64,000 bases of DNA from a virus, in the IMG/VR virus record IMGVR_UViG_3300043411_001777, positions 25,968 to 89,967 of that record; one strand, given 5' to 3'. Within the stretch, counting starts at the first letter, position 1. Each line of letters begins with the position of its first letter. A program made the translations under genes and the position numbers. This document shows positions 4,845 to 49,446 of the stretch, in pieces. The notes under the pieces were generated by a model. That model did no database searches, was not told the origin of the DNA, and saw only the letters and a program-made list of their open reading frames with translations.

Positions 4845-5113
4845 GGCCTATCCTTGATCCTACCAATTTCGCCATAGGGCAGATACGCAAAGCGTGCTAT
4901 CTTTGCGCGGCTTCGCCAATGCTGTGAATTGCACTTAGGACACAGGTTATCGGGTTCTGCCAATTTATTGGCGAGCACATCCCGAGCGCCAGTCAGCCCC
5001 AACTTTGTCGCGAACTCGATTAGGAGCTGCAATTGATCCGCAGTCGAGTATTGAACCGGTTTCCGCTCCCCCAAAAGATTGAGAAGGGCGTTAGCCTGAG
5101 GATCGAAATTCAT
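4841..5113 (-). CDS. hypothetical protein (90 aa) with CPKC motif
   Basis: ORF. Confidence 0.45.
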   Translation of the reverse strand: MNFDPQANALLNLLGERKPVQYSTADQLQLLIEFATKLGLTGARDVLANKLAEPDNLCPKCNSQHWRSRAKIARFAYLPYGEIGRIKDRP

Positions 5114-13611: not shown

Positions 13612-13829
13612 TAGTCACGACCCCAATCATTTTTGACGTCGAAAACGATAACCCGATTGGGGTCGTCGTAATCCGGAGCATATTGAGCGAGCTTCGACTC
13701 ACCTTTTACCGCGTGGACCAGCATGAAATCATAATCGCGAGCAAGGCAAAGCCCATGCTGGTTGCACAGGGCATTATAGGCCTCAAGGAACGCATTTACC
13801 CGATCGTTTTCCATGATTCTAACCTCCAC
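13611..13829 (-). CDS. hypothetical protein (72 aa)
   Basis: ORF with an ATGA overlap onto the HD gene. Confidence 0.45.
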   Translation of the reverse strand: MEVRIMENDRVNAFLEAYNALCNQHGLCLARDYDFMLVHAVKGESKLAQYAPDYDDPNRVIVFDVKNDWGRD

Positions 13830-13866
13830 AGAAGCTACCTAAACAGCTCCCGAAGTTAGGATCTTT

Positions 13867-14781
13867 TCAGTAACCACCCTGAAAAGGTTTAACCACACCC
13901 TCTGCCAATGCAGAATGGAAGCGGTCAGGATATCCCTCTTCGTACATAGACTGTACAGTCTCGAAATTCTCCCACGCGAATTCACGAAACCACCCCGAGG
14001 TGATACTCGTGCACACCTTCTCATGGGCGATGTTGAAGCTCAACCGACGGTCAACACCGAAATTGAACGGGATCTGACTCCGCTCCAAAGCAAGCACTTG
14101 AGTCTCCTCAAGGACCGCCAAGAGCTGGATTTCCTTTGGCTGCTTTCGGAAGAGCTTTTTGCTGCTCAACACTTCCTGCCCATCGACCGCGAAGAACCAG
14201 TAAGCCGGCTTATCGAGGTGCTGGACCGCAATGTGCAAAGTGTCGTGATCGTACTTGTACGGCACCCCATCCCCATTGAAGAATTCCCCCTTGGAACGCT
14301 TCAGATTCGGGTGCTGGTAGGAAAGGGTTTCCTTTTCCCGAAGCTTTGGCCAATCCCCAAGAGGAGCCAAGTCCGGAGACAGCTCCCTCAGCTTGAGGAT
14401 GTCCCCCATCGTCTTACGGAAGAAGGGGGAATCCTTCTTATACCGGTGCCCAAGCTTCAGCGCTAGGAGTACCGAAAGAGGGGGGAGGTATGCCGAGATG
14501 TTCTTGCCATTTACAGGCACGGTGACAACAGGCCAGCTCTCCGTCCGGGCCATTTCCAGAAGAGTTGCAGCAGTGGACCCGGACCAGGCCAATTCCAAAT
14601 CCAGGATCTGGCCAGGAACGGACAATGCCGCATGATTCTCGTCAATGACGTGGAGGCCCGCTTCCAGGAAATTCTGGAGAGCAGGCAAACGGATTCCTTC
14701 GATGATGAAGTCTAGGTCGAGAGGGGTTCGGCCGAGATCAACACCGTGTCGCAAACACGCTTCACTTCCGACGAGCAACAT
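13867..14781 (-). CDS. Pol-beta-superfamily nucleotidyltransferase-like protein (304 aa)
   Basis: N-terminal GS-x9-DLDF (LVGSEACLRHGVDLGRTPLDLDFII) minimal NTase motif, followed by a helical C-terminal domain. Confidence 0.45.
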   Translation of the reverse strand: MLLVGSEACLRHGVDLGRTPLDLDFIIEGIRLPALQNFLEAGLHVIDENHAALSVPGQILDLELAWSGSTAATLLEMARTESWPVVTVPVNGKNISAYLPPLSVLLALKLGHRYKKDSPFFRKTMGDILKLRELSPDLAPLGDWPKLREKETLSYQHPNLKRSKGEFFNGDGVPYKYDHDTLHIAVQHLDKPAYWFFAVDGQEVLSSKKLFRKQPKEIQLLAVLEETQVLALERSQIPFNFGVDRRLSFNIAHEKVCTSITSGWFREFAWENFETVQSMYEEGYPDRFHSALAEGVVKPFQGGY

Positions 14782-14785
14782 ACGT

Positions 14786-15121
14786 TTAGCACCTTAGCGA
14801 GCTGGGCAGCCAGGTCCCAGCAACAAGCGCCCCTTGATTGTGGGGGTTAAAATAACCGTCCAAATAGTTCATCGGATCTCCAAATTGGAGATCCGTGAAA
14901 TCCACATCAATTAGAACCTTGTGCTTTTCGCATAATTCCTGCACTTCGGAACCCGTTTCTGCGATCTTCGCCAGAGCATTCAGGTATTCGGAAGCAGGGT
15001 TTTCTAATTCCTTAGCCCTCTTAACCAGAGCGTAAAGCTCCTTGAGCTTGGTTTCAAGCTCAGGTTTGATGGCTTCTGGTACGGGTGCGGACAATTCAAA
15101 GTCTATACCGGCCATGATCAC
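14786..15121 (-). CDS. paralog family P, member 1 (111 aa); conserved N-terminal F-L-SAPVP-E and C-terminal AG(T/V)W(L/I)PSSxxC-COOH
   Basis: Aligns with four other tandem paralogs. The C-terminus is VAGTWLPSSLRC. Confidence 0.6.
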   Translation of the reverse strand: MIMAGIDFELSAPVPEAIKPELETKLKELYALVKRAKELENPASEYLNALAKIAETGSEVQELCEKHKVLIDVDFTDLQFGDPMNYLDGYFNPHNQGALVAGTWLPSSLRC

Positions 15122-15663
15122 TTCCTTAGTGGTTCTCTGGTTGATTTGAACCCACCCTTGCCGCGTCGTGCGAATTGGCGAGGCGTGGTCAATGCTTCCT
15201 CAACAGGCCAGCCGTGCTCGATTCGGTCAAGAAGAGCTGAGTAGCTGAGCCCAATCTGCTTCGCCCACTTGTTGAGTGTTTGAGTAGTCCCGTTCATCGT
15301 AAGCATTCGTGGCTGTCGAGAGGGAGTGGAAACAGCCTTGTCATGGTCCCATCCGCGATAAACTCGCCCCTTAACCAGATTCCTGGTCAAGCCCTTTTCC
15401 CTCTCGACCTCTCGAAATCCTCTCTTCCTGTTGTCGACCCTAACTCGCTTTGTGTACTTCAAACATCCACACGACTTGTTTCTGAACAAGTCGTGGTATG
15501 TGAGCATGAAGTGCACACCGCAAATGCACTTCATTTCACAGACAGCGTATTTCTTGGTTGCCTTGGCTCGATTCAGCCCAAGGAATGTGGTTGTTGTGAA
15601 CGGTTTGAACCCCTTGGCCGGAAGAATGGGGGTCGGCCGCTTCTCTTTCTCCACGCTCAGCAC
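15118..15663 (-). CDS. homing-endonuclease-like DNA-binding protein (zinc-finger region plus C-terminal HTH) inserted in the paralog array (181 aa)
   Basis: Cys cluster CEMKCICG...SCGC. The C-terminal TLNKWAKQIGLSYSALLDRIEHGWPVEEAL resembles the HTH tail common in phage HNH/homing endonucleases. No clean HNH catalytic motif was seen. Confidence 0.4.
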   Translation of the reverse strand: MLSVEKEKRPTPILPAKGFKPFTTTTFLGLNRAKATKKYAVCEMKCICGVHFMLTYHDLFRNKSCGCLKYTKRVRVDNRKRGFREVEREKGLTRNLVKGRVYRGWDHDKAVSTPSRQPRMLTMNGTTQTLNKWAKQIGLSYSALLDRIEHGWPVEEALTTPRQFARRGKGGFKSTREPLRK

Positions 15664-15986
15664 CGCATTGAACTATGGAGCCAGGTTCCTGCAACACGGG
15701 CTCCCCTTACCATATCCGACTCGTAGTCGTCGTAATCCTCCCTCCGACCGAAATCGTAATCGGTGAAACTTGCGTCAAGGACGACCCCGTAGCCCTTTGC
15801 AAGCTTCTCCAGCTTTCGAGCTTGCTCAGTGACTTCCTCGCAAGCTGCCTCATAGGTGTGAACCCCCTTCTCGGCCTCGCGTGCCTTCTGCACTGCGGCG
15901 AACAGCTCCTTAACCTGGGCTTCCAGGGTGGCGGAGACTTCGTTGGGGACGGGAGCGGACAGAGAAAACGTTGGCGTATCAGACAT
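15657..15986 (-). CDS. paralog family P, member 2 (109 aa)
   Basis: MSDTPTFSLSAPVPNEV...FTDYDFG...ARVAGTWLHSSMRC. Confidence 0.6.
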   Translation of the reverse strand: MSDTPTFSLSAPVPNEVSATLEAQVKELFAAVQKAREAEKGVHTYEAACEEVTEQARKLEKLAKGYGVVLDASFTDYDFGRREDYDDYESDMVRGARVAGTWLHSSMRC

Positions 15987-15998
15987 AGATTAAACCTC

Positions 15999-16358
15999 TT
16001 AGCAGCGGTATGAACTGGGAACCCAAACACCGGCCAGAACCGCACCGGCCATGGTGTCGAAGTAGGTGAAAGAGTCGTTTCCGAATGGGGTGTATTTGGA
16101 AAAGCTAACGTCAACGACCACATTGTGGTCGTTTGCAAGGGTCTCCATTTTTTCTGCGACTTCTGCAACGTGGCGAACCGCTTTGATATAGCGGCTCATC
16201 AACCTATTAGCCGCTTCATGCGAATTCCTAGCCTCGGATTCCATCGCCTGAGCACCCTGCATAGCAAGGAGCAAAGCCTGAAATTGGGCTTCAAAGGTCG
16301 CTTTGACCTCTTCAGGAAGGGGGGCGGATAGGTTAAACGTGTGTGTTTCTTCTGACAT
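15999..16358 (-). CDS. paralog family P, member 3 (119 aa)
   Basis: FNLSAPLPEEV...VLAGVWVPSSYRC. Confidence 0.6.
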   Translation of the reverse strand: MSEETHTFNLSAPLPEEVKATFEAQFQALLLAMQGAQAMESEARNSHEAANRLMSRYIKAVRHVAEVAEKMETLANDHNVVVDVSFSKYTPFGNDSFTYFDTMAGAVLAGVWVPSSYRC

Positions 16359-16368
16359 TCGGTCTTCC

Positions 16369-16689
16369 TTAGCAGGACATTGAGCTAGGAAGCCAAACCC
16401 CGGCTAGGCTGGCCCCGGAAGCCTCGTCGGCTTGACCCCAAAAATAGTCTGGGTGCCCAAAGACATAATCGGAGAAATTCGTCTCAACGAATGCTTTGTG
16501 TTTGTTCAAGAATGCGTGAAGGTCTGTGCCTAGATTGGCTACCTTCTTAAGGGTCTTGAACAGTTCCGCCTGTTCCTGAGCTTTCTGAACTTCCGCGTAC
16601 AAGGCCTTAACCTTGGCCTCCAGCTCAAGCTGGATTTCGGGGGAAAGGGGGCCCTTATTTGCTTCTACTGTAAAAGTCAGCGGTTCCAT
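16369..16689 (-). CDS. paralog family P, member 4 (106 aa)
   Basis: LTFTVEAN...FSDYVFG...SLAGVWLPSSMSC. Confidence 0.6.
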   Translation of the reverse strand: MEPLTFTVEANKGPLSPEIQLELEAKVKALYAEVQKAQEQAELFKTLKKVANLGTDLHAFLNKHKAFVETNFSDYVFGHPDYFWGQADEASGASLAGVWLPSSMSC

Positions 16690-16692
16690 AGA

Positions 16693-17013
16693 TCAGCACT
16701 CCATCGAGCTAGGAATCCAAGTACCTGCGATACGGGCACCTGTGCCCTCATCATGATCGAAGTATGACTTTCCATTGAATGGATAGTCACAGAAATTCGT
16801 TTTCACGTTGAGCTTGTGCTCAGCAGCGAAAGCGTTAAGCTTTACGCCCAGCGCGGCCACCTCATGGAGGGCCTCGAAATAGCCCTCCAAAGCTTTAGCC
16901 TTTTGGACAGCAGCGAACAGTCCCTTAACCTGCGATTCCAGCTCCGCCTGTACGGCGGGGGTAATCGTGGTTCCAGAGTCATGCCCCAGAGTAAACGTAG
17001 GAGTATCAATCAT
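16693..17013 (-). CDS. paralog family P, member 5 (106 aa)
   Basis: Start MIDTPTFTL aligns with the N-terminus of member 2. Its ATG lies 2 nt after the tnpB stop (TGAaaATG). The C-terminus is IAGTWIPSSMEC. Confidence 0.6.
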   Translation of the reverse strand: MIDTPTFTLGHDSGTTITPAVQAELESQVKGLFAAVQKAKALEGYFEALHEVAALGVKLNAFAAEHKLNVKTNFCDYPFNGKSYFDHDEGTGARIAGTWIPSSMEC

Positions 17014-17015
17014 TT

Positions 17016-18281
17016 TCAGCCTTTGTCGCAAGAAGTTCCGCAAGATAATGACCGTTGCTCCAAACTACCCCGATCAGGGTTCTGTTTCGATTCCTGCTTC
17101 AACGAAGATTGCCGGCTATCCGGGCTTACACCCCCTCCACAAGCGTTTTGAGCCTCCGGCCAACTGGCGGCGGCTAGGATATTGATCGCTGCATTCGTGT
17201 CCGCGTTGCAGCCAAAACCACAACTCAAACACTTAAACACCGACTGGGAAGCCCGATTACCAGCGTCAACGTGCCCACACGATGAGCATCGCTGACTTGT
17301 GTATTGCGGCGGAACAGCCACAATTTCACAACCGTAACGCTTCCCCTTATACTCAAGCTGACGCCGAAACTCTCCTAACGACGCATCATGCATTACACGG
17401 TTCAGCCCACGCTTTCGCGTGCCTCCAGACTTCACCATGTTCTTAACCTTCAAAGCCTCAATTGCAATTTGACCGTGGCTTTTGGTCAACATTGTTGATG
17501 CCTTATGTAAGGCATCTCTTCTTACGTTCCGTACCCTGCGGTGCAAACCGGCTCGCTTGGCCTTCGCCTTGCGGCGGTTGTTGCTCTCAGGCTGCTTACG
17601 GCTCAACGCCTGGTCGAAACGCTTCAGTTTTTTCTTGACTTTCCCAAGCGCCTTCGGGTTCTCAATCATGGTGCCATCGGAGAGCGCCGCCAGTATGGCC
17701 ACGCCCATATCGAGACCGACGGACGGAAATCCATTTGGTTCGGCTTCGGGAAAATCCGGTCCGACAACTGAAACGAACCATCGTCCGCAGTCCTCGGTGA
17801 TTGACGCCTGAGAATGCTTGCCGAGAGGAAGGTATCCTTTCTCTCCCGGCATGAGTCGAACACGGCCCAAGCTGGGCAACTTGATACTGTCCTCACGAGC
17901 GATGATGTGGTCTGTTAACCTGAAGCCGCCGATTCCACGGTTCTTGTTCTTAAACTTTGGGTAGCCGGGTTTTTCGCCTTTCTTGACGCGGTCGAAGAAG
18001 CGTTTGAAGGCTTGGTCAAGGTCACGTAGGGCTTCTTGGGGAGCGCATTTGCTGGCTTCGTACATCCAAGGCACGCCACCATCTTCGATGGGTTTCTTTT
18101 TGAGAAGGTTCAATTCGCGGTGAAGGTCGATCGCGCTGGGGGTTTTGCCCGTCGCCTTGTAAGCCTCTTGCTTTTTCGCCAGTCCCCAATTCCAGGCCCA
18201 TCGGGCATTGCCGGCTGCTTGAAGCATTTGGCGCTTCTGCCCTTCGGAGGGCCGAAGTTCTGCTCGGTAAGCGATTCTCAT
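17016..18281 (-). CDS. tnpB: TnpB-type RNA-guided endonuclease (IS200/IS605 OrfB family; 421 aa), catalytically intact
   Basis: Helical N-terminal region, RuvC-I D (VGLDMGV), RuvC-II E (IAIEAL), zinc ribbon CSSCGH...CLSCGF, RuvC-III D (NADTNAAINI), and an extended C-terminal tail. No tnpA neighbour. Confidence 0.85.
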   Translation of the reverse strand: MRIAYRAELRPSEGQKRQMLQAAGNARWAWNWGLAKKQEAYKATGKTPSAIDLHRELNLLKKKPIEDGGVPWMYEASKCAPQEALRDLDQAFKRFFDRVKKGEKPGYPKFKNKNRGIGGFRLTDHIIAREDSIKLPSLGRVRLMPGEKGYLPLGKHSQASITEDCGRWFVSVVGPDFPEAEPNGFPSVGLDMGVAILAALSDGTMIENPKALGKVKKKLKRFDQALSRKQPESNNRRKAKAKRAGLHRRVRNVRRDALHKASTMLTKSHGQIAIEALKVKNMVKSGGTRKRGLNRVMHDASLGEFRRQLEYKGKRYGCEIVAVPPQYTSQRCSSCGHVDAGNRASQSVFKCLSCGFGCNADTNAAINILAAASWPEAQNACGGGVSPDSRQSSLKQESKQNPDRGSLEQRSLSCGTSCDKG

Positions 18282-18321
18282 GTGTTAGTGTTACCGAAAA
18301 TATAGCCTAACAAGTTGGGGC
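17016..18321 (-). mobile_element. Possible tnpB-only IS200/IS605-like element or domesticated copy. Ends cannot be placed: 40 nt upstream and 2 nt downstream of the tnpB ORF are all that is non-coding.
   Basis: Based on gene content only. No LE/RE hairpins were identified. Confidence 0.3.
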
Positions 18322-18675
18322 TCAAAAGCTATAATCGTGATACGCCTGGCGGAACCCCAGACCAAGGCGGGTTCCACTATTGATCCCCTCACCCTTCTTA
18401 ACCCAATACCCATTCTTCCGGAGCGTGAACGTATAGACTGTCCCCTTTGGGTCCGGGGCGTACGAATACGACTGACTGTCGCTCATTCCGTTCCCGTCCG
18501 TTCGGGTAGCAGTGTCCTCCTGCACCTTGATCGTCTTGCCGTTCTTGGCGACCTCGATCACCGTACAAGCGTGACGGTCACTGTAGAAGAGCAGCGTTGC
18601 TCCCTGACCCACCTCCGGAGCCGGCTGGGTGGAATCTTCCATGATACGGTTCATAATACTTCCAAAGACGCGCAT
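18322..18675 (-). CDS. hypothetical protein (117 aa)
   Basis: Start at MRVFGS, with GGAGGTG 8 nt upstream. It is the first gene of the minus block after the divergent region 18676-18779. Confidence 0.55.
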   Translation of the reverse strand: MRVFGSIMNRIMEDSTQPAPEVGQGATLLFYSDRHACTVIEVAKNGKTIKVQEDTATRTDGNGMSDSQSYSYAPDPKGTVYTFTLRKNGYWVKKGEGINSGTRLGLGFRQAYHDYSF

Positions 18676-18779
18676 GTCTATCACCTCCAAACATGGAACC
18701 ACGAAGGACCACGAAGTTAGGGCCCTAAATTCTGCCTTGGTCGTGGTTTGATAGCTGTAACGAACAAAGGTTCTCCATA
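18676..18779. promoter_or_regulatory. Divergent intergenic region, likely carrying promoters for the minus block (18675 downward) and the plus block (18780 onward)
   Basis: The only strand switch here. 104 bp without ORFs. Confidence 0.35.
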
Positions 18780-19214
18780 ATGAGTGTTGAGTTTACAGGG
18801 TTCTACTCAGGTAAGGTTCATCGGGCGATTAAGCCCAAGCCGAACCTGATGCCCTTTATCTGTTCCATCCGAAGCCCAGCTCTAGACGAGGGCTTTTTCC
18901 GCTTCCTTAATGCTGATGGCAAACCTATTTCAGGCCCGCTCGCCCTCAGCTCCCCGATCGAAGTCCCAGCGTGGGAAACCAACCACTCGTTTGTGGTCTT
19001 GTCTCACCCACTAGATACAACAGGGTTCGGTTTTTTCAACCACCGGCTGGTGGCTCAAAAGCTGTTTCCCCAGCATAGGCAGGCTCCGGCATTCGGTATT
19101 TACCGGCCCGGTACGTTCGACCCTGACCTTAAGGTATCCCTGAGCGTATTCGGTGACGTCCTGGTTTTTCCGCTGATTATCAGCAATACCCTCTTGGAGC
19201 TTGCCAAGCAATGA
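18780..19214 (+). CDS. hypothetical protein (144 aa)
   Basis: ORF; first gene of the plus block. Confidence 0.5.
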   Translation: MSVEFTGFYSGKVHRAIKPKPNLMPFICSIRSPALDEGFFRFLNADGKPISGPLALSSPIEVPAWETNHSFVVLSHPLDTTGFGFFNHRLVAQKLFPQHRQAPAFGIYRPGTFDPDLKVSLSVFGDVLVFPLIISNTLLELAKQ

Positions 19215-19425
19215 TGCGTTTTTTGGTTGTTTTCGCGCTGTTCGTTTCGTGTGATACGGATTACACAGATGAGCCTCAGTGTAAGGACGGTGAAGTCCAA
19301 TGCCGAAGGGCGTGCGTACCTCTGTCGGATGTGGATCTGGTTATCGAGTGTCGAGGGAACCTGCCCTAAAACAATTCCTGTTAGTGGGTAGTCCCTCCGT
19401 AACAGGGAATCAGGAGAAAACGAAA

Positions 19426-19770
19426 ATGCGTGAGATTTGCACAACTTGTGGCTTTGAGAAGAAGGCTGTTCACATTCACGGGGATGAGTGGGACGTTCAT
19501 TGCTCTGACTTCTGTGCTGAAGTCGGATATACACACCGCAAGGCTTTCCTCACCCTTAAAGCTGGGGAATGGGGTTATTTTCCGTGCGCGAAGTGCGGGA
19601 CCATCCTAGAGGACATTTACTCGGGTCCGGAAGCCCCGCTTAAGGAGCGCATCTGTTCCGGATGCCACAAGAGGATTCGCTTTGAGCTAACCCGCGAAGC
19701 TTTGGAAAGGGCCCTGCCCTTCCTGCCGGAAGCTGATGCAGCCCTTGCTCGTGAAGCTCTGGATTTTTGA
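19426..19770 (+). CDS. zinc-finger protein (114 aa)
   Basis: Start MREICTTCG, with CAGGAG 9 nt upstream. Cys pairs CTTCG...CSDFC...CAKCG...CSGCH. Confidence 0.5.
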   Translation: MREICTTCGFEKKAVHIHGDEWDVHCSDFCAEVGYTHRKAFLTLKAGEWGYFPCAKCGTILEDIYSGPEAPLKERICSGCHKRIRFELTREALERALPFLPEADAALAREALDF

Positions 19771-24252: not shown

Positions 24253-25983
24253 TTGATGAAACGATATGCCGGCCACCTCCCAGAGGACTTTTGGCCCAAA
24301 CAAGAGAGCGAACTCAATAAGCTTTTAGCGTTAAGAGTACCCCATTACCCAGGGTCTGTTTACGGGGAAATGTTCAGCCTATTGTTTTTCAACAAGCAGT
24401 TGAAAACCACCCTCGGGACCAACAATCCCGAAGTTGTTAAACTGTGTCAATCAATGCATGATAGCATTGTAGAACATGCTGATAGGTTTGTGGCATTTCA
24501 AAATGAGATTGATGATGCTGGCAAGCCTAATAACCTTGGTGCATTCATTGCTGGGGACATCATTTCGAGGGTTGCCGAACTTTATGCAAAGCAATTCAGA
24601 ACCTTGGGGGACTGTCTAACAGAGGCTTGGCGTCTAAACATAATGGCTGTGGTTCAGCGCGCGGGTAAGCTGAAAAAGCAGGCTCCCCCCGAAGTTCTAG
24701 CCGCATACAAGGCCAAGGACTTCCAAACGGTTAGGGATTGGCTTGAGTCTGTTGCCACTTTGGGCCTGGCCTCTACACCCAAATACCTCATGGTTTACGT
24801 GTTTGACTACGTTGGGCCGTCTTTCCAGCTCTTGTTTGAGCAGTTGAAGGATGCTCTGGCAAAGCAAGCAACCTCCGGAGAGGATGATATATACCGCGAG
24901 TTTGACATGAATGGGTTGAAGGTTGTCATAGACGACACTACGGTCACCCCGGCTCAAACTCGGCAATATGTGAAATACATCGACGAGGCTTACAACCGGT
25001 TTCGCGCTAAGGGCATGGGGAAGATTTGGTATGGCACCCTCTTCATCTCCTGTAAAGCCTGTGGAGGAGTCAATAACCTAAACCCAGAACTAGGAACCGC
25101 AGCCCATTACAACATCCCCAAGGATTGGGTTCGGATATTCGAGCGGCCTGGCGCAGAGATAACGGAGTATATCGCGCACGAGCTAGGGCATCGCTACTGG
25201 TTCAAGAAGATGAGCCAGTCTCAGCGGACCAAATTTGAGCAATTGATTAGGGTCTACGACCGGCCCCACCCCAAACTAGCCCCAGACCGCTTGGACATCA
25301 AACAGTTAGATTCTGCCCTCGTATCGATGCGTGACCTTGCCACGAAGCTTTATTTCGAGTTGGAGGGTCACTTAAAGGTCTTCATGAAGACCCGAATAGC
25401 ACGGCCCAAGGCCATTGCGCAATTTACCAAACTTTTCGAGCAGGAAGTCAAGAAGTACGATGCAGGGTTGCGCGAAATCATTAGCGATCTAAGCACGCTC
25501 GCCCTCGTCAGGGAATACGAGAAGGCAGAGGGCTGGAAATCAAAAGCGAAGATGGACGAGGTTTTGCAGCAGTTAACACAAGCCGTGTCTGACCTTAACA
25601 TCAGGACTTTGCCGGAAGAGGATTTCAAGGCTCTTCGAGAGAAATGGGTGTGGTATGCGGCATCCCGGGCTGAAAATGCCAAGCTCTTCCTTTTTTCTTA
25701 TCTCTCCGGGGCGTCGGTCTATATTGAGAAAGAACAGCGTAGAGTTGAGTTGGACCGTCTCCATGAGAGAGAGGAGGCTTTCCTAGCGGATCCACGGCCG
25801 GTTATCCCGGTAAGTGACTACGGGAAGAACAACGCAGCGGAGGCTTTTGCCGAAGTGTTTGCATGGTACATCATGGGTAAGGACTTGACATCCGACCAGA
25901 AGGATTCGTTCCGTGCGGTGTTGGCAGGGAGCACCCTGGCACAGCGCATTGCTGCATTGTGGAGACGTAAGCATGGACATTGA
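24253..25983 (+). CDS. large protein with a C-terminal HExxH zincin-like metallopeptidase module (576 aa); paralog family Z, member 1
   Basis: IAHELGHRYWF with an E about 19 aa downstream. The C-terminal NAAEAFAEVFAWY motif is shared with the 25973-27400 and 55525-56607 genes. Confidence 0.6.
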   Translation: MMKRYAGHLPEDFWPKQESELNKLLALRVPHYPGSVYGEMFSLLFFNKQLKTTLGTNNPEVVKLCQSMHDSIVEHADRFVAFQNEIDDAGKPNNLGAFIAGDIISRVAELYAKQFRTLGDCLTEAWRLNIMAVVQRAGKLKKQAPPEVLAAYKAKDFQTVRDWLESVATLGLASTPKYLMVYVFDYVGPSFQLLFEQLKDALAKQATSGEDDIYREFDMNGLKVVIDDTTVTPAQTRQYVKYIDEAYNRFRAKGMGKIWYGTLFISCKACGGVNNLNPELGTAAHYNIPKDWVRIFERPGAEITEYIAHELGHRYWFKKMSQSQRTKFEQLIRVYDRPHPKLAPDRLDIKQLDSALVSMRDLATKLYFELEGHLKVFMKTRIARPKAIAQFTKLFEQEVKKYDAGLREIISDLSTLALVREYEKAEGWKSKAKMDEVLQQLTQAVSDLNIRTLPEEDFKALREKWVWYAASRAENAKLFLFSYLSGASVYIEKEQRRVELDRLHEREEAFLADPRPVIPVSDYGKNNAAEAFAEVFAWYIMGKDLTSDQKDSFRAVLAGSTLAQRIAALWRRKHGH

Positions 25984-41376: not shown

Positions 41377-43110
41377 GTGAACGAAGAAATCCCAGAGAAC
41401 CTCCCCGCCATTGTTGACGTGATTCGTGCCGAAACCGTCGCGGATACAAGCGAACCCGTCGCAATTGGCCAGTGGTTCTGGCGCCGGGCCAAGCCCGAAC
41501 GCTATCTCGTCTGCGTTACCCATGTAGGTTCAAACTTCGCTATGGTTGAAACCGTGGGAGGCCGAACCGAACGAATTCTATTGGAAGATTGGGAACGCCA
41601 TTGTCGAAAGGCAAAGGCCCCTAATCGCTATATCGACACCCAGGTTGGCTTCCACAAGGAACGAGTGCAAGAGCTTCTGTCCGAAGTGCAGGCCGTCACG
41701 GCCCGACTCGGACTTCAGCCTACTGAAGCGCTCGGCAATAGCACGTCCAGCACCAGCCTCGCAGTCGTGCATGGTGTGGGTGACGTCCAGGCCCACAAGC
41801 TCGAATTGATCGAGGCGAAGAGCAAGACACTCCCCGAGCTTTTCAAGGAAATCGAGGGCCAGCATGCCGCTATGGCCATGTGGATGAAAGCCTCACTCAT
41901 CCCCATGAAGGCAATTGCAGCTCAGGCTAGGCAGGCAACGTCGAGCATTGACAGTCGGATCATGATGGTCGAGCTATACGCGGGCTTGACTGAGGAACTG
42001 ACCCAGATCCTGGACGGGGAGCCCGCCCCAAATGACACGCGCATCCACCTGTTTCAGCGCCAGCATTACATGGATGAGGAATGCCTGGCTCAATATGAAG
42101 CCGGGGGCATGGATTTCCGTGGCATCGGTGCTTTTGACAAGTGGCTTGCCCGCCCCCAAAACCTGAATCGTATCCTGCCTTTCCCACGCAGTATCGTTGC
42201 ATTTCAGGTACGCCGAAAGGCTAAGGATTACGGCGAGGCCCGCTCACTGTCTGAAGCGATCCGCTTCTGGGAAATGGGAGAAGCCGACAAGCTGACGTTC
42301 CTGTATATCCGAAACGGAGATACCCTTCACCGATTGAGCACGGCTGTTGAATTCGGCGAGAATCTTTTCCCGGACCATGAGAATGAGGAACTTCTGGGCG
42401 AGGGTCCGAAGTGGATCGTACAGAGTAGCTTTGGATTCGAGAGGGTCATTTCAGAGCGCGAGCATGACGCAGTCATGCTAAAGCGGGAAGAAGAAAACGC
42501 AAAATACAAGCGTGAGCTGGCGGCGTGGAAATCAGAGTCTGAAAAGACGCGCAGTCATTTTGAGCCATATAAACCATATGGGCGGGACACCCATGTTCCC
42601 CTCTCACGTGACAGCGTCTATTACGATGATGCTATGCGGTCGATGGCGGAGAGTGCGGTTGCACACAACCGGATTGCCGTCGTAATCCAGGGGCTTCTGG
42701 ACCGCTCGATTGCGCTCCACCCTCACCCTCCCTGGCAGCTTTGGACCCCGGAAGGTTTTACGGGCGCGCTGGAACTCGTTTTTGACGCGTCCCGGGGCAT
42801 TGCTAATGGGGAGCCGCCGAACTTTGAGGCGTACTTTGCCCGGCTTGGAGAGAGCATTAAGGCTGGCTCCATGGTGATTGGAGCGCAGGAGCTGTGGGAA
42901 CGCGCAGAAGCTGAAAAGGAAAACGACCGGCGACGGAGAAGTTATCGATACCGTTCGGACGAGTGTTACGAGAAGTCCAGTTTCCCTATGGGGGAAGCCC
43001 TCCAAAGAAGTACGGATGCAACAACGTTCACTGCGGTAATCCGTTCGCCTACGTCGAAAAGGACTGTCCAACTTCGTGCCCAAGGTGTGGCGCCAGTATG
43101 GGACGGCTAA
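41377..43110 (+). CDS. large hypothetical protein (577 aa) immediately upstream of rtcB. Its C-terminal ~50 codons overlap an alternative-frame zinc-ribbon ORF.
   Basis: Long ORF with no recognisable motifs. Confidence 0.5.
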   Translation: MNEEIPENLPAIVDVIRAETVADTSEPVAIGQWFWRRAKPERYLVCVTHVGSNFAMVETVGGRTERILLEDWERHCRKAKAPNRYIDTQVGFHKERVQELLSEVQAVTARLGLQPTEALGNSTSSTSLAVVHGVGDVQAHKLELIEAKSKTLPELFKEIEGQHAAMAMWMKASLIPMKAIAAQARQATSSIDSRIMMVELYAGLTEELTQILDGEPAPNDTRIHLFQRQHYMDEECLAQYEAGGMDFRGIGAFDKWLARPQNLNRILPFPRSIVAFQVRRKAKDYGEARSLSEAIRFWEMGEADKLTFLYIRNGDTLHRLSTAVEFGENLFPDHENEELLGEGPKWIVQSSFGFERVISEREHDAVMLKREEENAKYKRELAAWKSESEKTRSHFEPYKPYGRDTHVPLSRDSVYYDDAMRSMAESAVAHNRIAVVIQGLLDRSIALHPHPPWQLWTPEGFTGALELVFDASRGIANGEPPNFEAYFARLGESIKAGSMVIGAQELWERAEAEKENDRRRRSYRYRSDECYEKSSFPMGEALQRSTDATTFTAVIRSPTSKRTVQLRAQGVAPVWDG

Positions 43111-43157
43111 CCGAATCCGAAATACTCTACTATGTAGAGTTTGTTCCTGGAGACTAG
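42963..43157 (+). CDS. zinc-ribbon ORF (64 aa) in an alternative frame. It is either a separate overlapping gene or the true C-terminus of the 41377 gene reached by a frameshift.
   Basis: CNNVHCGN-x15-CPTSCPRCG, GTG start. It ends 2 nt before the rtcB ATG. Confidence 0.35.
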   Translation: MLREVQFPYGGSPPKKYGCNNVHCGNPFAYVEKDCPTSCPRCGASMGRLTESEILYYVEFVPGD

Positions 43158-43159
43158 AA

Positions 43160-44386
43160 ATGCGTGTAATTCAGTCCAATGAGATGCGAGTCCCCGTCAA
43201 GATTTGGGACGGCGGCGGAAACGTTCCTTTCGAGGACGCCGTTATCGGGCAGATTTCCAATGCTGCCACCCTTCCCATCATCCACAACCATGTTGCGCTT
43301 ATGCCCGACGGGCATTTTGGCATCGGAGCCGCGGTCGGATCAGTAATCCCCACCGTCAACGCCATCATCCCTGCGGCTGTAGGCGTGGACATTGGTTGCG
43401 GTATGGCTGCGGTTCAGACTTCCCTGAACGCCTCCCAGCTTCCAGACTCACTCGCTGCACTTCGCTCTGCGATTGAGCAGGCGGTTCCCCATGGCCGTTC
43501 CGACAACGGTGGGTCGAATGACGTGGGGTCCTTCCGGGGCAACTCCCTTCCTGCAACCCACGCAAAGGCATGGGCGGATGAACTGGCCGTGGGGTACGCA
43601 AGGATCGCATCGAAGTATCCCAAGCTCGGCTCTGGTAATTCGGCCAACCACCTCGGAACTCTCGGAACCGGTAATCATTTCACAGAGTTGTGCCTTGACG
43701 AGTCGGGCCAGGTTTGGGTGATGCTGCATTCGGGAAGCCGCGGGGTTGGTAACCGTTTCGGTATGCATTTCATCGCCTTGGCGAAGGAGGATATGATCAA
43801 GGCTGGCCTGACGGCGGTCGACAAGGATCTGTCCTACTTGACCGAGGGGACCCAGCATTTCAACGATTATGTTGAGGCCGTGGATTGGGCGCAGAAGTAC
43901 GCCCGAATCAACCGCCAGCTCATGATGGGGGAGGTTATCCGCGTGATGCGTGATTTCCTCCCACCATTCACGCTGACCGAGATGGCGGTCAACTGCCACC
44001 ACAACTATGTGGCGCGCGAGCACCACTTTGGACAGGATGTCTGGCTCACCCGTAAGGGGGCTGTTTCTGCTGCACAAGGGCAGTTGGGCATCATCCCTGG
44101 ATCGATGGGTGCCAAGAGCTTCATCGTTCGTGGGAAGGGCAACCCCGAGTCCTTCCATAGCTGTTCGCACGGTGCGGGTCGGTCTATGTCTCGGGGTGAG
44201 GCCAAGCGCCGTTTCTCACTTGAGGACCACGAGAAGGCCACTGTTGGGGTGGAGTGCCGAAAGGATGTCGGAGTCATTGATGAGACCCCGGCTGCGTACA
44301 AGTCGATTGACAACGTTATGGCGGCTCAGACGGATCTCGTCGAGATTGTCTACACACTCAAGCAGGTTCTTTGTGTGAAGGGGTAA
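43160..44386 (+). CDS. rtcB: RNA 3'-phosphate/2',3'-cyclic-phosphate ligase RtcB (408 aa)
   Basis: Start MRVIQSNEMRVPVKIWD, with GGAGA upstream. The protein also carries the RtcB hallmarks HNHVALMPDGHFGIG, GCGMA, GTLGTGNHF, LHSGSRGVGN and CHHNY. Confidence 0.85.
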   Translation: MRVIQSNEMRVPVKIWDGGGNVPFEDAVIGQISNAATLPIIHNHVALMPDGHFGIGAAVGSVIPTVNAIIPAAVGVDIGCGMAAVQTSLNASQLPDSLAALRSAIEQAVPHGRSDNGGSNDVGSFRGNSLPATHAKAWADELAVGYARIASKYPKLGSGNSANHLGTLGTGNHFTELCLDESGQVWVMLHSGSRGVGNRFGMHFIALAKEDMIKAGLTAVDKDLSYLTEGTQHFNDYVEAVDWAQKYARINRQLMMGEVIRVMRDFLPPFTLTEMAVNCHHNYVAREHHFGQDVWLTRKGAVSAAQGQLGIIPGSMGAKSFIVRGKGNPESFHSCSHGAGRSMSRGEAKRRFSLEDHEKATVGVECRKDVGVIDETPAAYKSIDNVMAAQTDLVEIVYTLKQVLCVKG

Positions 44387-45693: not shown

Positions 45694-45998
45694 CCAATGA
45701 TATCCCAAACGGGTATTTCCGACAGGATATGACTGCTCCTAGCATTGGGGGCATAGACCCAGTTCTTCTTGCTCATTTCGCGTACTTCTTTGCTAGAGCA
45801 ACAAAACGCCTCGCAACCGCCACTGTTCCCCAAGAACTTCAAGAAGCGGATTCCTCCGCAAGTTTCCACGGGCGAAGACTACGCTCAATCCTCGGAAAGC
45901 TTCCGAATGATGACTTACTTGAAAGATGGGCGCTAGCCGGCGAGCAGATTCACAAGATTTGCACCCAAATCAGAAACGACCGAAAGGACAACAAATGA
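45690..45998 (+). CDS. hypothetical protein, paralog of 45379-45693 (102 aa)
   Basis: Tandem paralog; its stop overlaps the purA-like start (ATGA). Confidence 0.45.
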   Translation: MTNDIPNGYFRQDMTAPSIGGIDPVLLAHFAYFFARATKRLATATVPQELQEADSSASFHGRRLRSILGKLPNDDLLERWALAGEQIHKICTQIRNDRKDNK

Positions 45999-47128
45999 TC
46001 AGTTTCGCGGACATTGTAGTAGACCTCCGTTACGGCGACTGTGGCAAAGGCGCCGTAGTTTACGAGCTTTGCAAGGACCCCCGTTACGACATCGTCCTCC
46101 GGTGGAATGGGGGGTCCAACGCTGGCCACACGATTTACCACAATGGGGTGAAATTCGCCACCCACCTCATTCCCACTGGAATCTTCCACGGTAAGCTTTG
46201 TGTGATCGGGTCCGGTTGTGTGGTTAACCCGCGCAAGTTTTTTGAGGAGCTTGAGTCCCTTCGCAATATGGGCATTGAAACCGAGGGTAAGGTTTTCATT
46301 GCCAAGAACGCCCATATTGTGACCGAAGAGCATATTGCCTCCGAACAAGCCGAATCCAAAATCGGCACCACTAAACAGGGGATTGGCCCTGCCTACGCTG
46401 CAAAGCACGCCCGTACTGGCATTCGAGCAGAGTCCGTCCCCGAGCTGGCACCTTACCTCGTTGACCTCTATGAGCTGTTCTACAGCTCAACACCCTATGG
46501 AGTCCTAGCCGAAGGGGCACAGGGGTTCGACATTGATATTGACTGGTGTGCAGAATACCCTTTTAGCAGCTCATCCATTGCGACCGTTGCAGGAGCTATT
46601 CAGAATGGCATTCCTTGGGACAAGGTTCGCAAGGTGTTCGGGGTGGCTAAGGCTTACGACACTTATGTGGGCTCCCGGGACTTTGAACCCAAGAACGCGA
46701 TTTTCCAAAAGCTGCGCGAGCTGGGCTCTGAATTTGGGGCTACTACAGGCCGTCCTCGCCAGTGCAATTGGTTGGACCTATATGGGTTGACCAAGGCGAT
46801 CGAAGTGAACAGCGTTACAGACGTGGTCATTTCCAAGATGGATATCCTACGGGAGCTGAACAAACAGACTGACAACCAGAACTGGTGCTTTGCGCATAGC
46901 CGCGAATCCCTTCCTGGGGAGGATTCATTCGTGGCTTATCTCAGCGATCACCTTATGAAGCTGCAAAGCGTGAAACGCCTCCATTGGAGGAATTCGCCAA
47001 CAGATTCAATGGGGAATGGGACGATGTTCTGTCGGGGCACAAGCCGAACTGACAAAACGCAATTAGAAATCATGCGTGACATTCTCCGTCAAGAGCAATT
47101 TAGGTACATTTCCAAGGAAGGGCTATGA
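45995..47128 (+). CDS. purA: short adenylosuccinate synthetase-family protein (PurA-like; 377 aa); PurZ candidate not excluded
   Basis: GDCGKGA P-loop (PurA GDEGKGK), NGGSNAGHT, GIGPAYAAK, GATTGRPRQCNWLDL, and SKMD (a TKLD-like guanine motif). It is about 50 aa shorter than bacterial PurA. AAAGGA RBS. Confidence 0.8.
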   Translation: MISFADIVVDLRYGDCGKGAVVYELCKDPRYDIVLRWNGGSNAGHTIYHNGVKFATHLIPTGIFHGKLCVIGSGCVVNPRKFFEELESLRNMGIETEGKVFIAKNAHIVTEEHIASEQAESKIGTTKQGIGPAYAAKHARTGIRAESVPELAPYLVDLYELFYSSTPYGVLAEGAQGFDIDIDWCAEYPFSSSSIATVAGAIQNGIPWDKVRKVFGVAKAYDTYVGSRDFEPKNAIFQKLRELGSEFGATTGRPRQCNWLDLYGLTKAIEVNSVTDVVISKMDILRELNKQTDNQNWCFAHSRESLPGEDSFVAYLSDHLMKLQSVKRLHWRNSPTDSMGNGTMFCRGTSRTDKTQLEIMRDILRQEQFRYISKEGL

Positions 47129-47631
47129 CCTCAGTATTCCTGGATTCTGATGGTGTTTGCGCTGATTTTGACCGCGGATTCCCTGAAATCTTTGGCATTG
47201 ACCACCGGTCAATCCCAGAAGAAGAGATGTGGCGGCTGGTTGCGGAACTCCCAACCTTTTTTGATGAGCTGCCTCTTATGCCAGATGCAGAAGAGCTGTT
47301 CAATGGGTTGCGGGACTACGATCCTATTATCCTAACCGCATGCCCTAAGGCTTGTTTTCAAGCGGCTGCAATCGCTAAGAAACGATGGGTTCGGCGGCAC
47401 TTCGGGCTTCATGTAAGAGTGCTTCCGGTTTGGGGTGGGAAGAATAAACCCCTCTACATGCACCAGCCTGGGGATATCCTTATTGACGATTGGCAGGACA
47501 ATATCACGGCTTGGAACGCTTTTGGCGGAACTGGCATCCTGCACTTGGATGCAGCTTCCTCGCTTGAGGTTGCACGTATGTCCTTAGCCTATGACACGGA
47601 TAGGGCAGCCCGTCGACGGGTTCGGGAGTAA
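47125..47631 (+). CDS. HAD-superfamily 5'(3')-deoxyribonucleotidase-like protein (NT5C family; 168 aa)
   Basis: N-terminal FLDSDGVCADF (the DxDx(V/T) motif I of HAD, as in deoxyribonucleotidases). Confidence 0.65.
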   Translation: MTSVFLDSDGVCADFDRGFPEIFGIDHRSIPEEEMWRLVAELPTFFDELPLMPDAEELFNGLRDYDPIILTACPKACFQAAAIAKKRWVRRHFGLHVRVLPVWGGKNKPLYMHQPGDILIDDWQDNITAWNAFGGTGILHLDAASSLEVARMSLAYDTDRAARRRVRE

Positions 47632-47634
47632 GGT

Positions 47635-48387
47635 ATGGATTCAAAGTTTCGTGTTCTTCCTCCCGAGCACCTACTTTCTACGGGGCTTCTGTTCGAGATC
47701 AACAGAGCCGTCCTGCACAAGTTCGGACTGGCCCTCGCATACACCACGGACGACACTGATGCGTCCAAACCAGCCTATCTGTCTATCCTAAAAGTGGATG
47801 ACCCCGAGGGGCTAATCTTCGGCGAAGACCTACGTTCTTCGGGCTACCGCAAGTACAAGGACTTTCTTAACGAAGAAACCCCTAAGCTTGCGTGTCGTCT
47901 GGGTACCTTTGGTTGGCTAGATCAGCCTGGGAATGTCGTGACTAAGATAGAGCAATTTACAGGGGAGTACCGTTGGTTGTCCAACTTCTTCGATGTCGAA
48001 GTGGTTTTGGATGGCGTGACGTACAGCTCCACTGAGCACGCTTACCAAGCGGCGAAGACTCTTGACCCGATTGAGCGGGAACGTGTCCGATTGGCCCCCA
48101 CGCACGGGGCCTCCAAGCGGGAGGGGCGAAAGATTACCCTCCGCCCCGGCTGGGACAGCATCAAAAACGATGTCATGTTGGACCTTCTTCGGCAGAAGTT
48201 CGCGCGTCCGGACTTGAGGCGGCTTCTCGACGAGACTGGGGAAACTCAGCTTGTTGAGGGCAATCACTGGCATGATGTGTGGTTTGGCGTGTGTAGCGGC
48301 AAGTGTCGTAGTCCTCATGCTAAGCCTGAGGGTGCCAATCATCTAGGCCGAATGCTCATGCAGGTCCGTGACGAGAACAGGAAATGA
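47635..48387 (+). CDS. NADAR (YbiA/DUF1768)-domain protein with an N-terminal extension (250 aa)
   Basis: YRWLSNFFDVEVVLDGVTYSSTEHAYQAAK ... GWDSIKNDVMLDLLRQKFA ... ETGETQLVEGNHWHDVWFG matches the NADAR signature. Confidence 0.7.
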   Translation: MDSKFRVLPPEHLLSTGLLFEINRAVLHKFGLALAYTTDDTDASKPAYLSILKVDDPEGLIFGEDLRSSGYRKYKDFLNEETPKLACRLGTFGWLDQPGNVVTKIEQFTGEYRWLSNFFDVEVVLDGVTYSSTEHAYQAAKTLDPIERERVRLAPTHGASKREGRKITLRPGWDSIKNDVMLDLLRQKFARPDLRRLLDETGETQLVEGNHWHDVWFGVCSGKCRSPHAKPEGANHLGRMLMQVRDENRK

Positions 48388-48677: not shown

Positions 48678-48982
48678 AACCAATTACACCCCAAGAAGTA
48701 GCTGACCGCAAGGTTAAGTCTATCCCACCCGAAGTCATTGAGGTTTTCAATGACTTGATTGCGGAGAACTTTTCCGGCAATTCCGCAACCGTCACGGTGA
48801 CTCAAGCAGTCACCCGCATCAAAAAGAGGATGGGGAGGCGGACTAATGATGAACAAATCGTTGAACGGGGCTGGTTGGACATTGAGCCTATCTTTCGAGA
48901 AACGGGTTGGGATGTGGTATACGACCAGCCTGGGTACAACGAATCCTACGAGGCGAACTACACTTTCACGGTGAAGAAGTGA
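48674..48982 (+). CDS. hypothetical protein, tandem paralog of 48384-48677 (102 aa), GTG start overlapping the previous stop
   Basis: GTGA overlap. The protein ends TFTVKK. Confidence 0.5.
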   Translation: MKPITPQEVADRKVKSIPPEVIEVFNDLIAENFSGNSATVTVTQAVTRIKKRMGRRTNDEQIVERGWLDIEPIFRETGWDVVYDQPGYNESYEANYTFTVKK

Positions 48983-49446
48983 TGGCGTGGACCTCCAACC
49001 TCAAAATCCTCGAAATGAACCTGTTTGACGCCCCAAAAGGGGCTTTGCTGGTTCATGCCTGTAATTGCATGGGCCGATGGGGGAGCGGTATCGCCAAGGT
49101 CTTCGCAGAGAAAAAGTCGAAGGCTTACGTTGAATACCAACACCTCTGTTCAAGGGGCGTAACCCCAGGTATGGCCGACATTCTTTCTGAGAATGTCGGC
49201 GTCCTCTTCACCTCCAAGGGCTACGCCAGCACCGTTGACAGTCCAGCTCAGATCCTGACAGCGACACGATTGGCCGTCAATGACCTTCTGGCCAAGTGTC
49301 GCTCGGAAGGGCTGTCGCTGGTGTACTCCAACAAGTTCAATTCCGGGCTGTTCAAGGTCCCCTGGGTGGACACTGAGAAAGTGCTGGCAGAGGTTCTGTC
49401 GGGTTACCCTGAAATCGAATGGGTGGTTTGTGACTACACCGGCTAA
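48982..49446 (+). CDS. macro-domain protein (ADP-ribose binding/hydrolase; 154 aa)
   Basis: LVHACNCMGRWGSGIAKVF matches the macro N-x(2)-G-x(2)-G-x-G-(I/V)-A motif. Confidence 0.75.
   Translation: MAWTSNLKILEMNLFDAPKGALLVHACNCMGRWGSGIAKVFAEKKSKAYVEYQHLCSRGVTPGMADILSENVGVLFTSKGYASTVDSPAQILTATRLAVNDLLAKCRSEGLSLVYSNKFNSGLFKVPWVDTEKVLAEVLSGYPEIEWVVCDYTG

Follow-up and report, generated by a model that had tools for sequence, protein, structure and literature searches.

The TnpB proteins are RNA-guided nucleases of transposons, and their clades are reported to be polyphyletically associated with either Y1 or serine transposases (PMC10691335). In the insertion sequence (IS) element ISDra2, the transposase is a Y1 HUH TnpA, the ends harbor subterminal hairpins and the transposon-associated motif (TAM) is TTGAT; the scaffold of its omega-RNA begins within the last part of tnpB, and the flank supplies the guide (PMC8612924). 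Elements of the IS607 family lack terminal inverted repeats and do not duplicate their target; they terminate in GG, and GG is also where they insert (PMC6188088, PMC13565253). In IS1535, the TnpA-binding left end encompasses around 60-80 bp (PMC6188088). TnpB has also been noted in viruses (PMC10691335). Here we describe a tnpB gene found within 64,000 nucleotides (nt) of viral DNA (IMG/VR record IMGVR_UViG_3300043411_001777, positions 25,968 to 89,967), referred to as the window. The gene (17016-18281) lies on the minus strand, as do all features described between 14786 and 18675, and directly precedes a set of five paralogous genes. It probably forms part of a transposase-less, or solo, TnpB/omega-RNA element. 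In complete members of the clade to which it belongs, which are IS607-type insertion sequences, a serine-recombinase tnpA immediately precedes tnpB.

The right end of the element is revealed by comparison of the 3' ends of its copies, namely those of the window and of the relatives L003, L004, L015-L025, L223 and L224. Nucleotide similarity extends through the end of tnpB and comes to an abrupt halt after a common motif, (T)TTnGAGCAACGG, with unrelated sequence beyond it in every copy. In the window, similarity to the other copies stops at the terminus GAGCAACGG (17052-17060), and the element hence finishes ...AACGG, GG-ending as in IS607 elements. The position of this motif with respect to the tnpB stop codon varies among the copies. 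The TGA stop overlaps the motif in L004, and the motif is found 4 nt past the stop in L003 and 20 nt past it in L223; in the window it occurs 33 nt before the stop. Because there is no in-frame stop inside the element, the window open reading frame (ORF) reads 11 codons into phage DNA, such that residues 1-410 of its 421 amino acids are encoded by the element and the last 11 codons (17051-17019; SLSCGTSCDKG) and the stop come from the flank. The chance TGA that terminates it (17018-17016) is followed by just two nucleotides, aa, and then by the ATG of the first paralog, P5, at 17013. An earlier, sequence-only reading of this DNA had correctly noted this 2-nt gap; the apparent wedging of tnpB against P5 results from read-through of the ORF past an internal right end. 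From the insertion point to the P5 ATG there are 38 nt of native spacer (17014-17051), which lie outside the region common to the other copies and contain an AAAGG Shine-Dalgarno-like motif (17024-17020) along with two direct copies of TCTTGCG. As judged from these alignments, P5 and its 38-nt leader are untouched by the element and P5 is not IS-derived. A TnpB ORF that abuts its neighbors does not, then, imply that transposon ends are missing.

The terminus also marks the end of a structured RNA. The omega-RNA, or reRNA, scaffold is a 129-nt segment (17052-17180) contained entirely in the 3' part of the tnpB ORF, as the sequence-only reading had envisaged in one of its two options. The common fold of nine 3'-end sequences contains 19 pairs, 9 of which display compensatory changes. 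A covariance model, R1, constructed from eight relatives with the window excluded, produces a single match in the 64 kb, which is full length and coincides with the scaffold coordinates (97.8 bits, E 2.8e-26). Overall, the model finds 98 sites in 97 sources, and the full-length matches listed for protein-anchored loci are located at the point where the tnpB match finishes on its 3' side, or shortly beyond it. In the alignment of the 98 sites, 92.9% of cells are standard pairs and double changes are seen in 27 of the 29 pairs. The covariation score is 0.452, in comparison to 0.128 for shuffles (none of 500 reaches the observed value) and at most 0.071 with slid partners. The C-terminal peptide of the TnpB alignment, ...NACGxxVxP...KQE..., represents the translation of the scaffold region. 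A structured omega-RNA that overlaps the 3' end of the gene and finishes at the right end is what is expected of a TnpB system, and in this clade, where scaffold and right end sit within the ORF and the ORF can continue into host DNA, annotation should set the right end by the RNA model and not by the stop codon. A scan of 14000-19500 with Rfam 15 (E <= 1) detected no omega-RNA family and no RAGATH-18, the RNA of characterized IS607 TnpBs, which is a point of difference from them; only a spurious Alpha_RBS was returned. The 3' coding tail, which had been considered unusually long, is ordinary: it encompasses 43 residues after the NACG motif, and the tails of 102 homologues are bimodal, at around 27 and around 48 residues.

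As the scaffold ends at 17052, the predicted guide, TCATTATCTTGCGGAACTTC, consists of the next 16-20 nt (17051-17032), the length being taken from the TnpB literature (PMC8612924, PMC11061315). It reads TCATTATCTTGCGGAA(CTTC) and stops short of the P5 ATG. This guide sequence is predicted to equal the target in an allele that is without tnpB. The guide 20-mer is unique in the window, even when 3 mismatches are permitted. A direct likeness of 13 out of 17 nt was seen between the guide region at 17032-17048 and tnpB codons 4-9 at 18254-18270 (TTATCTTGCGGAACTTC / TTACCGAGCAGAACTTC), and is probably due to chance.

The protein itself displays the features of the family. All three of its Pfam domains, HTH_OrfB_IS605 (PF12323), OrfB_IS605 (PF01385) and Cas12f1-like_TNB (PF07282), score above their cut-offs. 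In an alignment of the window protein with 24 homologues, the RuvC triad of D191 (GLDMG), E275 (IAIEAL) and D361 (NADTNAA) occupies invariant columns, as do the zinc-ribbon cysteines C332, C335, C351 and C354. The order of parts, with HTH/REC, a split RuvC and the zinc ribbon, and the combination of a D-E-D triad with CxxC...CxxC, are those of TnpB. Since the triad is retained, the sequence excludes a TldR-type, nuclease-dead derivative, as had been proposed from the ORF alone. The best natural match among solved structures is ISDra2 TnpB (PDB 8BF8, 8EXA, 8H1J), which has the same domain order and is matched over its full length (E 1.4e-47, residues 4-398); 9yyg, an AI-designed nuclease, gives a stronger score (4.2e-56). 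No second tnpB was found in the 64-kb window by tblastn. The earlier statement that tnpA is absent is in agreement with a tblastn search of the same 64 kb for a serine-recombinase tnpA, which gave no match (best E 0.8), no search having been aimed at a Y1 gene. The arrangement and sequence of tnpB are identical in an independent assembly (L002, Logan SRR35185575), and the locus is therefore not an assembly artifact.

The family to which the element belongs is evident from its relatives. The closest TnpBs are P0002 (81% identity, L003), P0003 (82%, L004-L006) and P0004 (73%, L223). These copies are found in phage-like contigs, are tnpA-less and are tightly packed between genes, with each at a different site; the genes in the contigs of the closest relatives include those for portal, RusA, RNA ligase, Dam and DUF5131. 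In L016/L018, L020 and L025, where TnpB is 59-62% identical to that of the window, the stop of a serine-recombinase tnpA overlaps the start of tnpB. The encoded TnpAs end ...ARIYG(R/K/Q)R(S/A)A(E/K)(N/S)R..., with a MerR-type helix-turn-helix (HTH) and a Resolvase domain in L016 and Resolvase alone above threshold in L025. Only remnants of tnpA are found in L022 and L023, and tnpB is alone in the window, L003, L004, L223, L224 and L024. Among five tnpA-less copies compared, at least four are in phage-like contigs. As the closest of the relatives that have a tnpA carry one for an IS607-type serine recombinase, the subterminal hairpins of IS200/IS605 elements, which the sequence-only reading had used as its yardstick, are not to be expected here. 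By its relatives, the window TnpB is of the IS607 lineage; however, with tnpA and a recognizable left end missing, it is not part of a complete IS607 element. The fact that ISDra2 provides the closest structure agrees with the polyphyletic association of TnpBs and transposases (PMC10691335), and the differences from ISDra2 lie outside the protein, in that the transposase of the relatives is a serine recombinase and the element ends ...AACGG. In some respects the window element mirrors IS607 and IS1535, namely in the tnpA with MerR-HTH and Resolvase domains that overlaps the tnpB start in its relatives, in the GG terminus and in the absence of inverted repeats. It differs from them in having no tnpA and at most 40 nt upstream of tnpB, as opposed to a left end of around 60-80 bp.

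Two further observations concern these relatives. The IMG/VR contigs L016 and L209 share a near-identical omega-RNA and right end (…TTTTGTTAAACGG) and then run into different flanks. Because the right end is shared and the flanks differ, comparison of the two contigs suggests that the tnpA-bearing version of the clade has recently been mobile in phage-like DNA. In L015 (3843-4004) and L021 (2760-2915), a small ribbon-helix-helix (CopG/Arc-like) gene is found in place of tnpA directly upstream of tnpB. These genes recall Arc repressors that a recent preprint reports from IS605 elements (bioRxiv 10.64898/2026.09.24.754181).

The occurrence of such a gene in a phage is less unusual than had been thought. 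A total of 331 GenBank phage records have TnpB homologues, and proteins of this kind make up PHROG 506. Solo tnpB elements, of the IS1341 type, and loss of tnpA are both common. For these reasons the element is filed among known kinds: it is a TnpB in every testable respect, and adds to the known range of phage TnpBs. Like IS1341-type elements, it forms a unit of tnpB and RNA only; unlike them, in which both ends are recognizable, it has only a recognizable right end.

The left side of the element is bounded by a phage gene for a protein of 117 residues (18322-18675; PHROG 19789/33370), whose TGA ends at 18322. Its C-terminus is native, with the homologues having in common the motif ...AY(H/Y)DYSF (...AYHDYSF in the window). 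Given this conservation, the left junction must fall in the 40-nt spacer between the stop of this gene and the tnpB ATG (18321-18282), the length of which had been given correctly. Two GG dinucleotides within the spacer represent candidate left junctions, GTTAGG/CTATAT and TTTTCGG/TAACAC, where the slash marks the junction. The spacer (18282-18321) contains neither a hairpin nor a minus-strand promoter-like site. A repeat search of 16990-18340 returned only short, chance-level pairs of inverted or direct repeats, in keeping with the lack of terminal inverted repeats and target duplication in IS607 elements. The claim that there is no room for IS ends fails on the right, where the end lies inside the ORF at 17052; on the left, at most 40 nt are available. 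The left flanks of the relatives show only a G-rich or GG tendency, and as the left boundaries in the relatives are themselves uncertain, no TAM is claimed for the window.

Also within the spacer is a heptamer, GCCCCAA (18315-18321), that is seen again in L004 (around 1421-1427) and upstream of tnpB in L024, with GG 7-8 nt past it in all three. In L223 (around 4981-4986), GCCCAA is followed by GG 4 nt later, and L003 has the reverse complement, TTGGGGC. The tnpA-less copies that bear GCCCCAA share nothing else upstream of tnpB. The heptamer could be a left-end or a target-site motif.

A number of points weigh against the interpretation of the locus as an inserted, functional TnpB/omega-RNA element. 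The residue after the catalytic Glu, at position 276 (17456-17458), is Ala (IEAL), whereas it is Asp (IEDL) in 106 of 110 homologues. With this near-invariant Asp replaced, the activity of the TnpB is not guaranteed by its sequence. Folding of the scaffold region as a single sequence, which the sequence-only reading had proposed as a check, finds it no more stable than shuffles (z = +0.78), and the evidence for the omega-RNA is therefore comparative and not thermodynamic; the 98-sequence alignment used for covariation was, moreover, fitted to model R1. On the left side, the window, L003, L004, L223 and L224 show no conservation 5' of the tnpB start codon, and a phased TnpA-binding left end of around 60-80 bp, as in IS1535, is not seen. 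With no more than 40 nt before the ATG, and none of it conserved in the relatives, the element may no longer be mobilizable by a transposase. Finally, we infer the insertion and its left boundary, as no empty site has come to light in the protein, metagenome and viral contig searches made for the proposed comparison with relatives that are without tnpB. Exact-protein look-ups of P5 and of the upstream gene return the same phage only. Among 5.8 billion proteins, no relative of the upstream protein exceeds 64% identity; three more distant relatives display no evident synteny, as judged by gene tables and not by sequence search, and neither of the two closest loci inspected in IMG/VR (L007, L008) is syntenic. 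Neither the metagenome nor the viral contig collections contain an exact copy of the 26-nt right flank, and a nucleotide search of 13800-19300 against GenBank phages gave no match. A bare 14-mer scan of viral contigs yielded mostly chance matches, which needed filtering.

The element would appear to have entered a former intergenic spacer of around 50-80 nt, between the gene for the 117-residue protein and P5, in the same orientation as the operon. By analogy with characterized TnpB systems (PMC8612924, PMC10278001, PMC10055086, PMC11061315), the most likely role of the window TnpB is that of an RNA-guided nuclease for homing or retention. The tnpB gene would be transcribed together with the phage operon, and the protein would bind and trim the 3' part of its own transcript to give an omega-RNA with the 16-20 nt guide described above. 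The resulting complex would cut phage genomes that bear the guide sequence beside a TAM, that is, alleles without the element, and recombinational repair from a tnpB-containing genome would copy the element in. In a lytic phage, the templates for such repair would be sister or co-infecting genomes, and in this way the element would be retained by, or home between, phage genomes that co-replicate or co-infect. The allele that carries the element would itself be protected, since scaffold and not a TAM precedes the target. Homing into co-infecting phages that is non-restorative has been treated as a concept (PMC13565253).

Different accounts of the element can be set against this one, and they part company over where it ends, whether it still works and whom it serves. 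The sequence-only reading had entertained an element that ends exactly at the tnpB stop, with a guide consisting of the first ~16 nt of P5. That the scaffold lies inside the coding tail and that the stop abuts P5 would suit such an arrangement, yet the full-length match to the RNA model finishes at 17052, the sequence past GAGCAACGG is unrelated in all other copies, and no relative has a counterpart of the 33 nt from 17051 to the stop. An end at the stop codon is accordingly extremely improbable; the element ends 33 nt earlier, and its predicted guide derives from the 38-nt spacer. The locus could also be a decaying remnant, in which an immobile and possibly inactive tnpB persists after the loss of tnpA and the left end, neither of which is recognizable here. 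The loss of the native stop, with the addition of 11 flank-derived residues, and the change at residue 276 can both be read as signs of relaxed constraint. However, the ORF is of full length and uninterrupted, all of the invariant family columns are kept, the omega-RNA matches the family model from end to end, and two independent samples agree exactly in sequence, all of which make decay quite unlikely.

A more substantial alternative is that the phage keeps the gene as a transposase-independent, RNA-guided nuclease cassette, either akin to a homing endonuclease or as a weapon against co-infecting phages. The closest relatives (73-82% identical) are, as described, tnpA-less and placed at different sites in phage-like contigs, and no sequence is shared 5' of the start codon. 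The gene points the same way as the operon and lacks a promoter-like site of its own, a second endonuclease-like ORF is found in the same array, and non-restorative homing has been discussed as a concept (PMC13565253). Set against this, the guide is mere flank, as in any transposon copy, and bears no sign of retargeting, and a transposon terminus is kept at the right end. Furthermore, there is no tnpB-minus sibling allele among the sequences searched and no evidence of benefit, and the placement at a different site in each phage implies that the element has transposed in some way. On balance we regard a cassette kept by the phage as somewhat unlikely. An extension of the same idea, which we offer speculatively and consider unlikely, is that the window copy and the four relatives nearest to it make up a phage-adapted lineage of minimal cassettes with a left boundary at around the start codon, spreading and persisting without a transposase and biasing inheritance or excluding competitors. 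If this were true, such cassettes would be the RNA-guided equivalents of free-standing homing endonucleases in phage co-infection. The solo element of IS607 lineage is the account that we favor. Compact, tnpA-less phage TnpBs represent a convenient system for testing homing by TnpB alone, an idea that for phages is so far mostly conceptual.

The free-standing homing endonucleases of T4, Seg and Mob, resemble the locus in that conserved phage genes flank a nuclease gene, with an HNH-like ORF in the region, and in that cutting of alleles without the gene is expected, the latter by analogy only (PMC13565253). In contrast, Seg and Mob recognize their targets through the protein, whereas the window TnpB would employ an RNA guide and a TAM.

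The five paralogs that follow tnpB are P5 (16693-17013, 106 residues), P4 (16369-16689), P3 (15999-16358), P2 (15657-15986) and P1 (14786-15121). They range from 106 to 119 residues and are 35-48% identical, in line with their earlier description as diverged paralogs. They have in common an N-terminal region, xDTPTFxL, which in P5 lies, together with the start codon, outside the element, and all five end AG(T/V)WxPSSxxC with a terminal Cys. A search of 5.8 billion proteins returned only the five proteins themselves, and an exhaustive hidden Markov model search brings in just four further relatives, all of them weak and small (100-110 residues). In these searches the paralogs are an orphan family, confined to this phage.

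Between P2 and P1, and overlapping the ends of both neighbors, is an HNH-endonuclease-like ORF of 181 residues (15118-15663). It matches PHROG 3377, annotated as HNH endonuclease (7e-16), only via its C-terminal residues 117-166, a DNA-binding-type segment, and it has no Pfam match. The ORF is missing from the gene calls made for the Logan contig. On the basis of two cases, this ORF and tnpB, it is plausible that the array attracts selfish nuclease genes.

The whole window comes from a phage-like contig of 206 kb. On the plus strand at 45926-47128 it harbors a homologue of adenylosuccinate synthetase (Pfam PF00709, 2e-77), which also falls within PHROG 1211, a family with a PurZ-type name. Nearby are genes for an NT5C-like nucleotidase (47125-47631), NADAR (47635-48387), a Macro-domain protein (48907-49446) and an RtcB ligase (43076-44386). 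The synthetase homologue might be a purine auxiliary gene, or it might point to a genome with 2-aminoadenine, and the latter, if true, would bear on how any nuclease sees the phage DNA.

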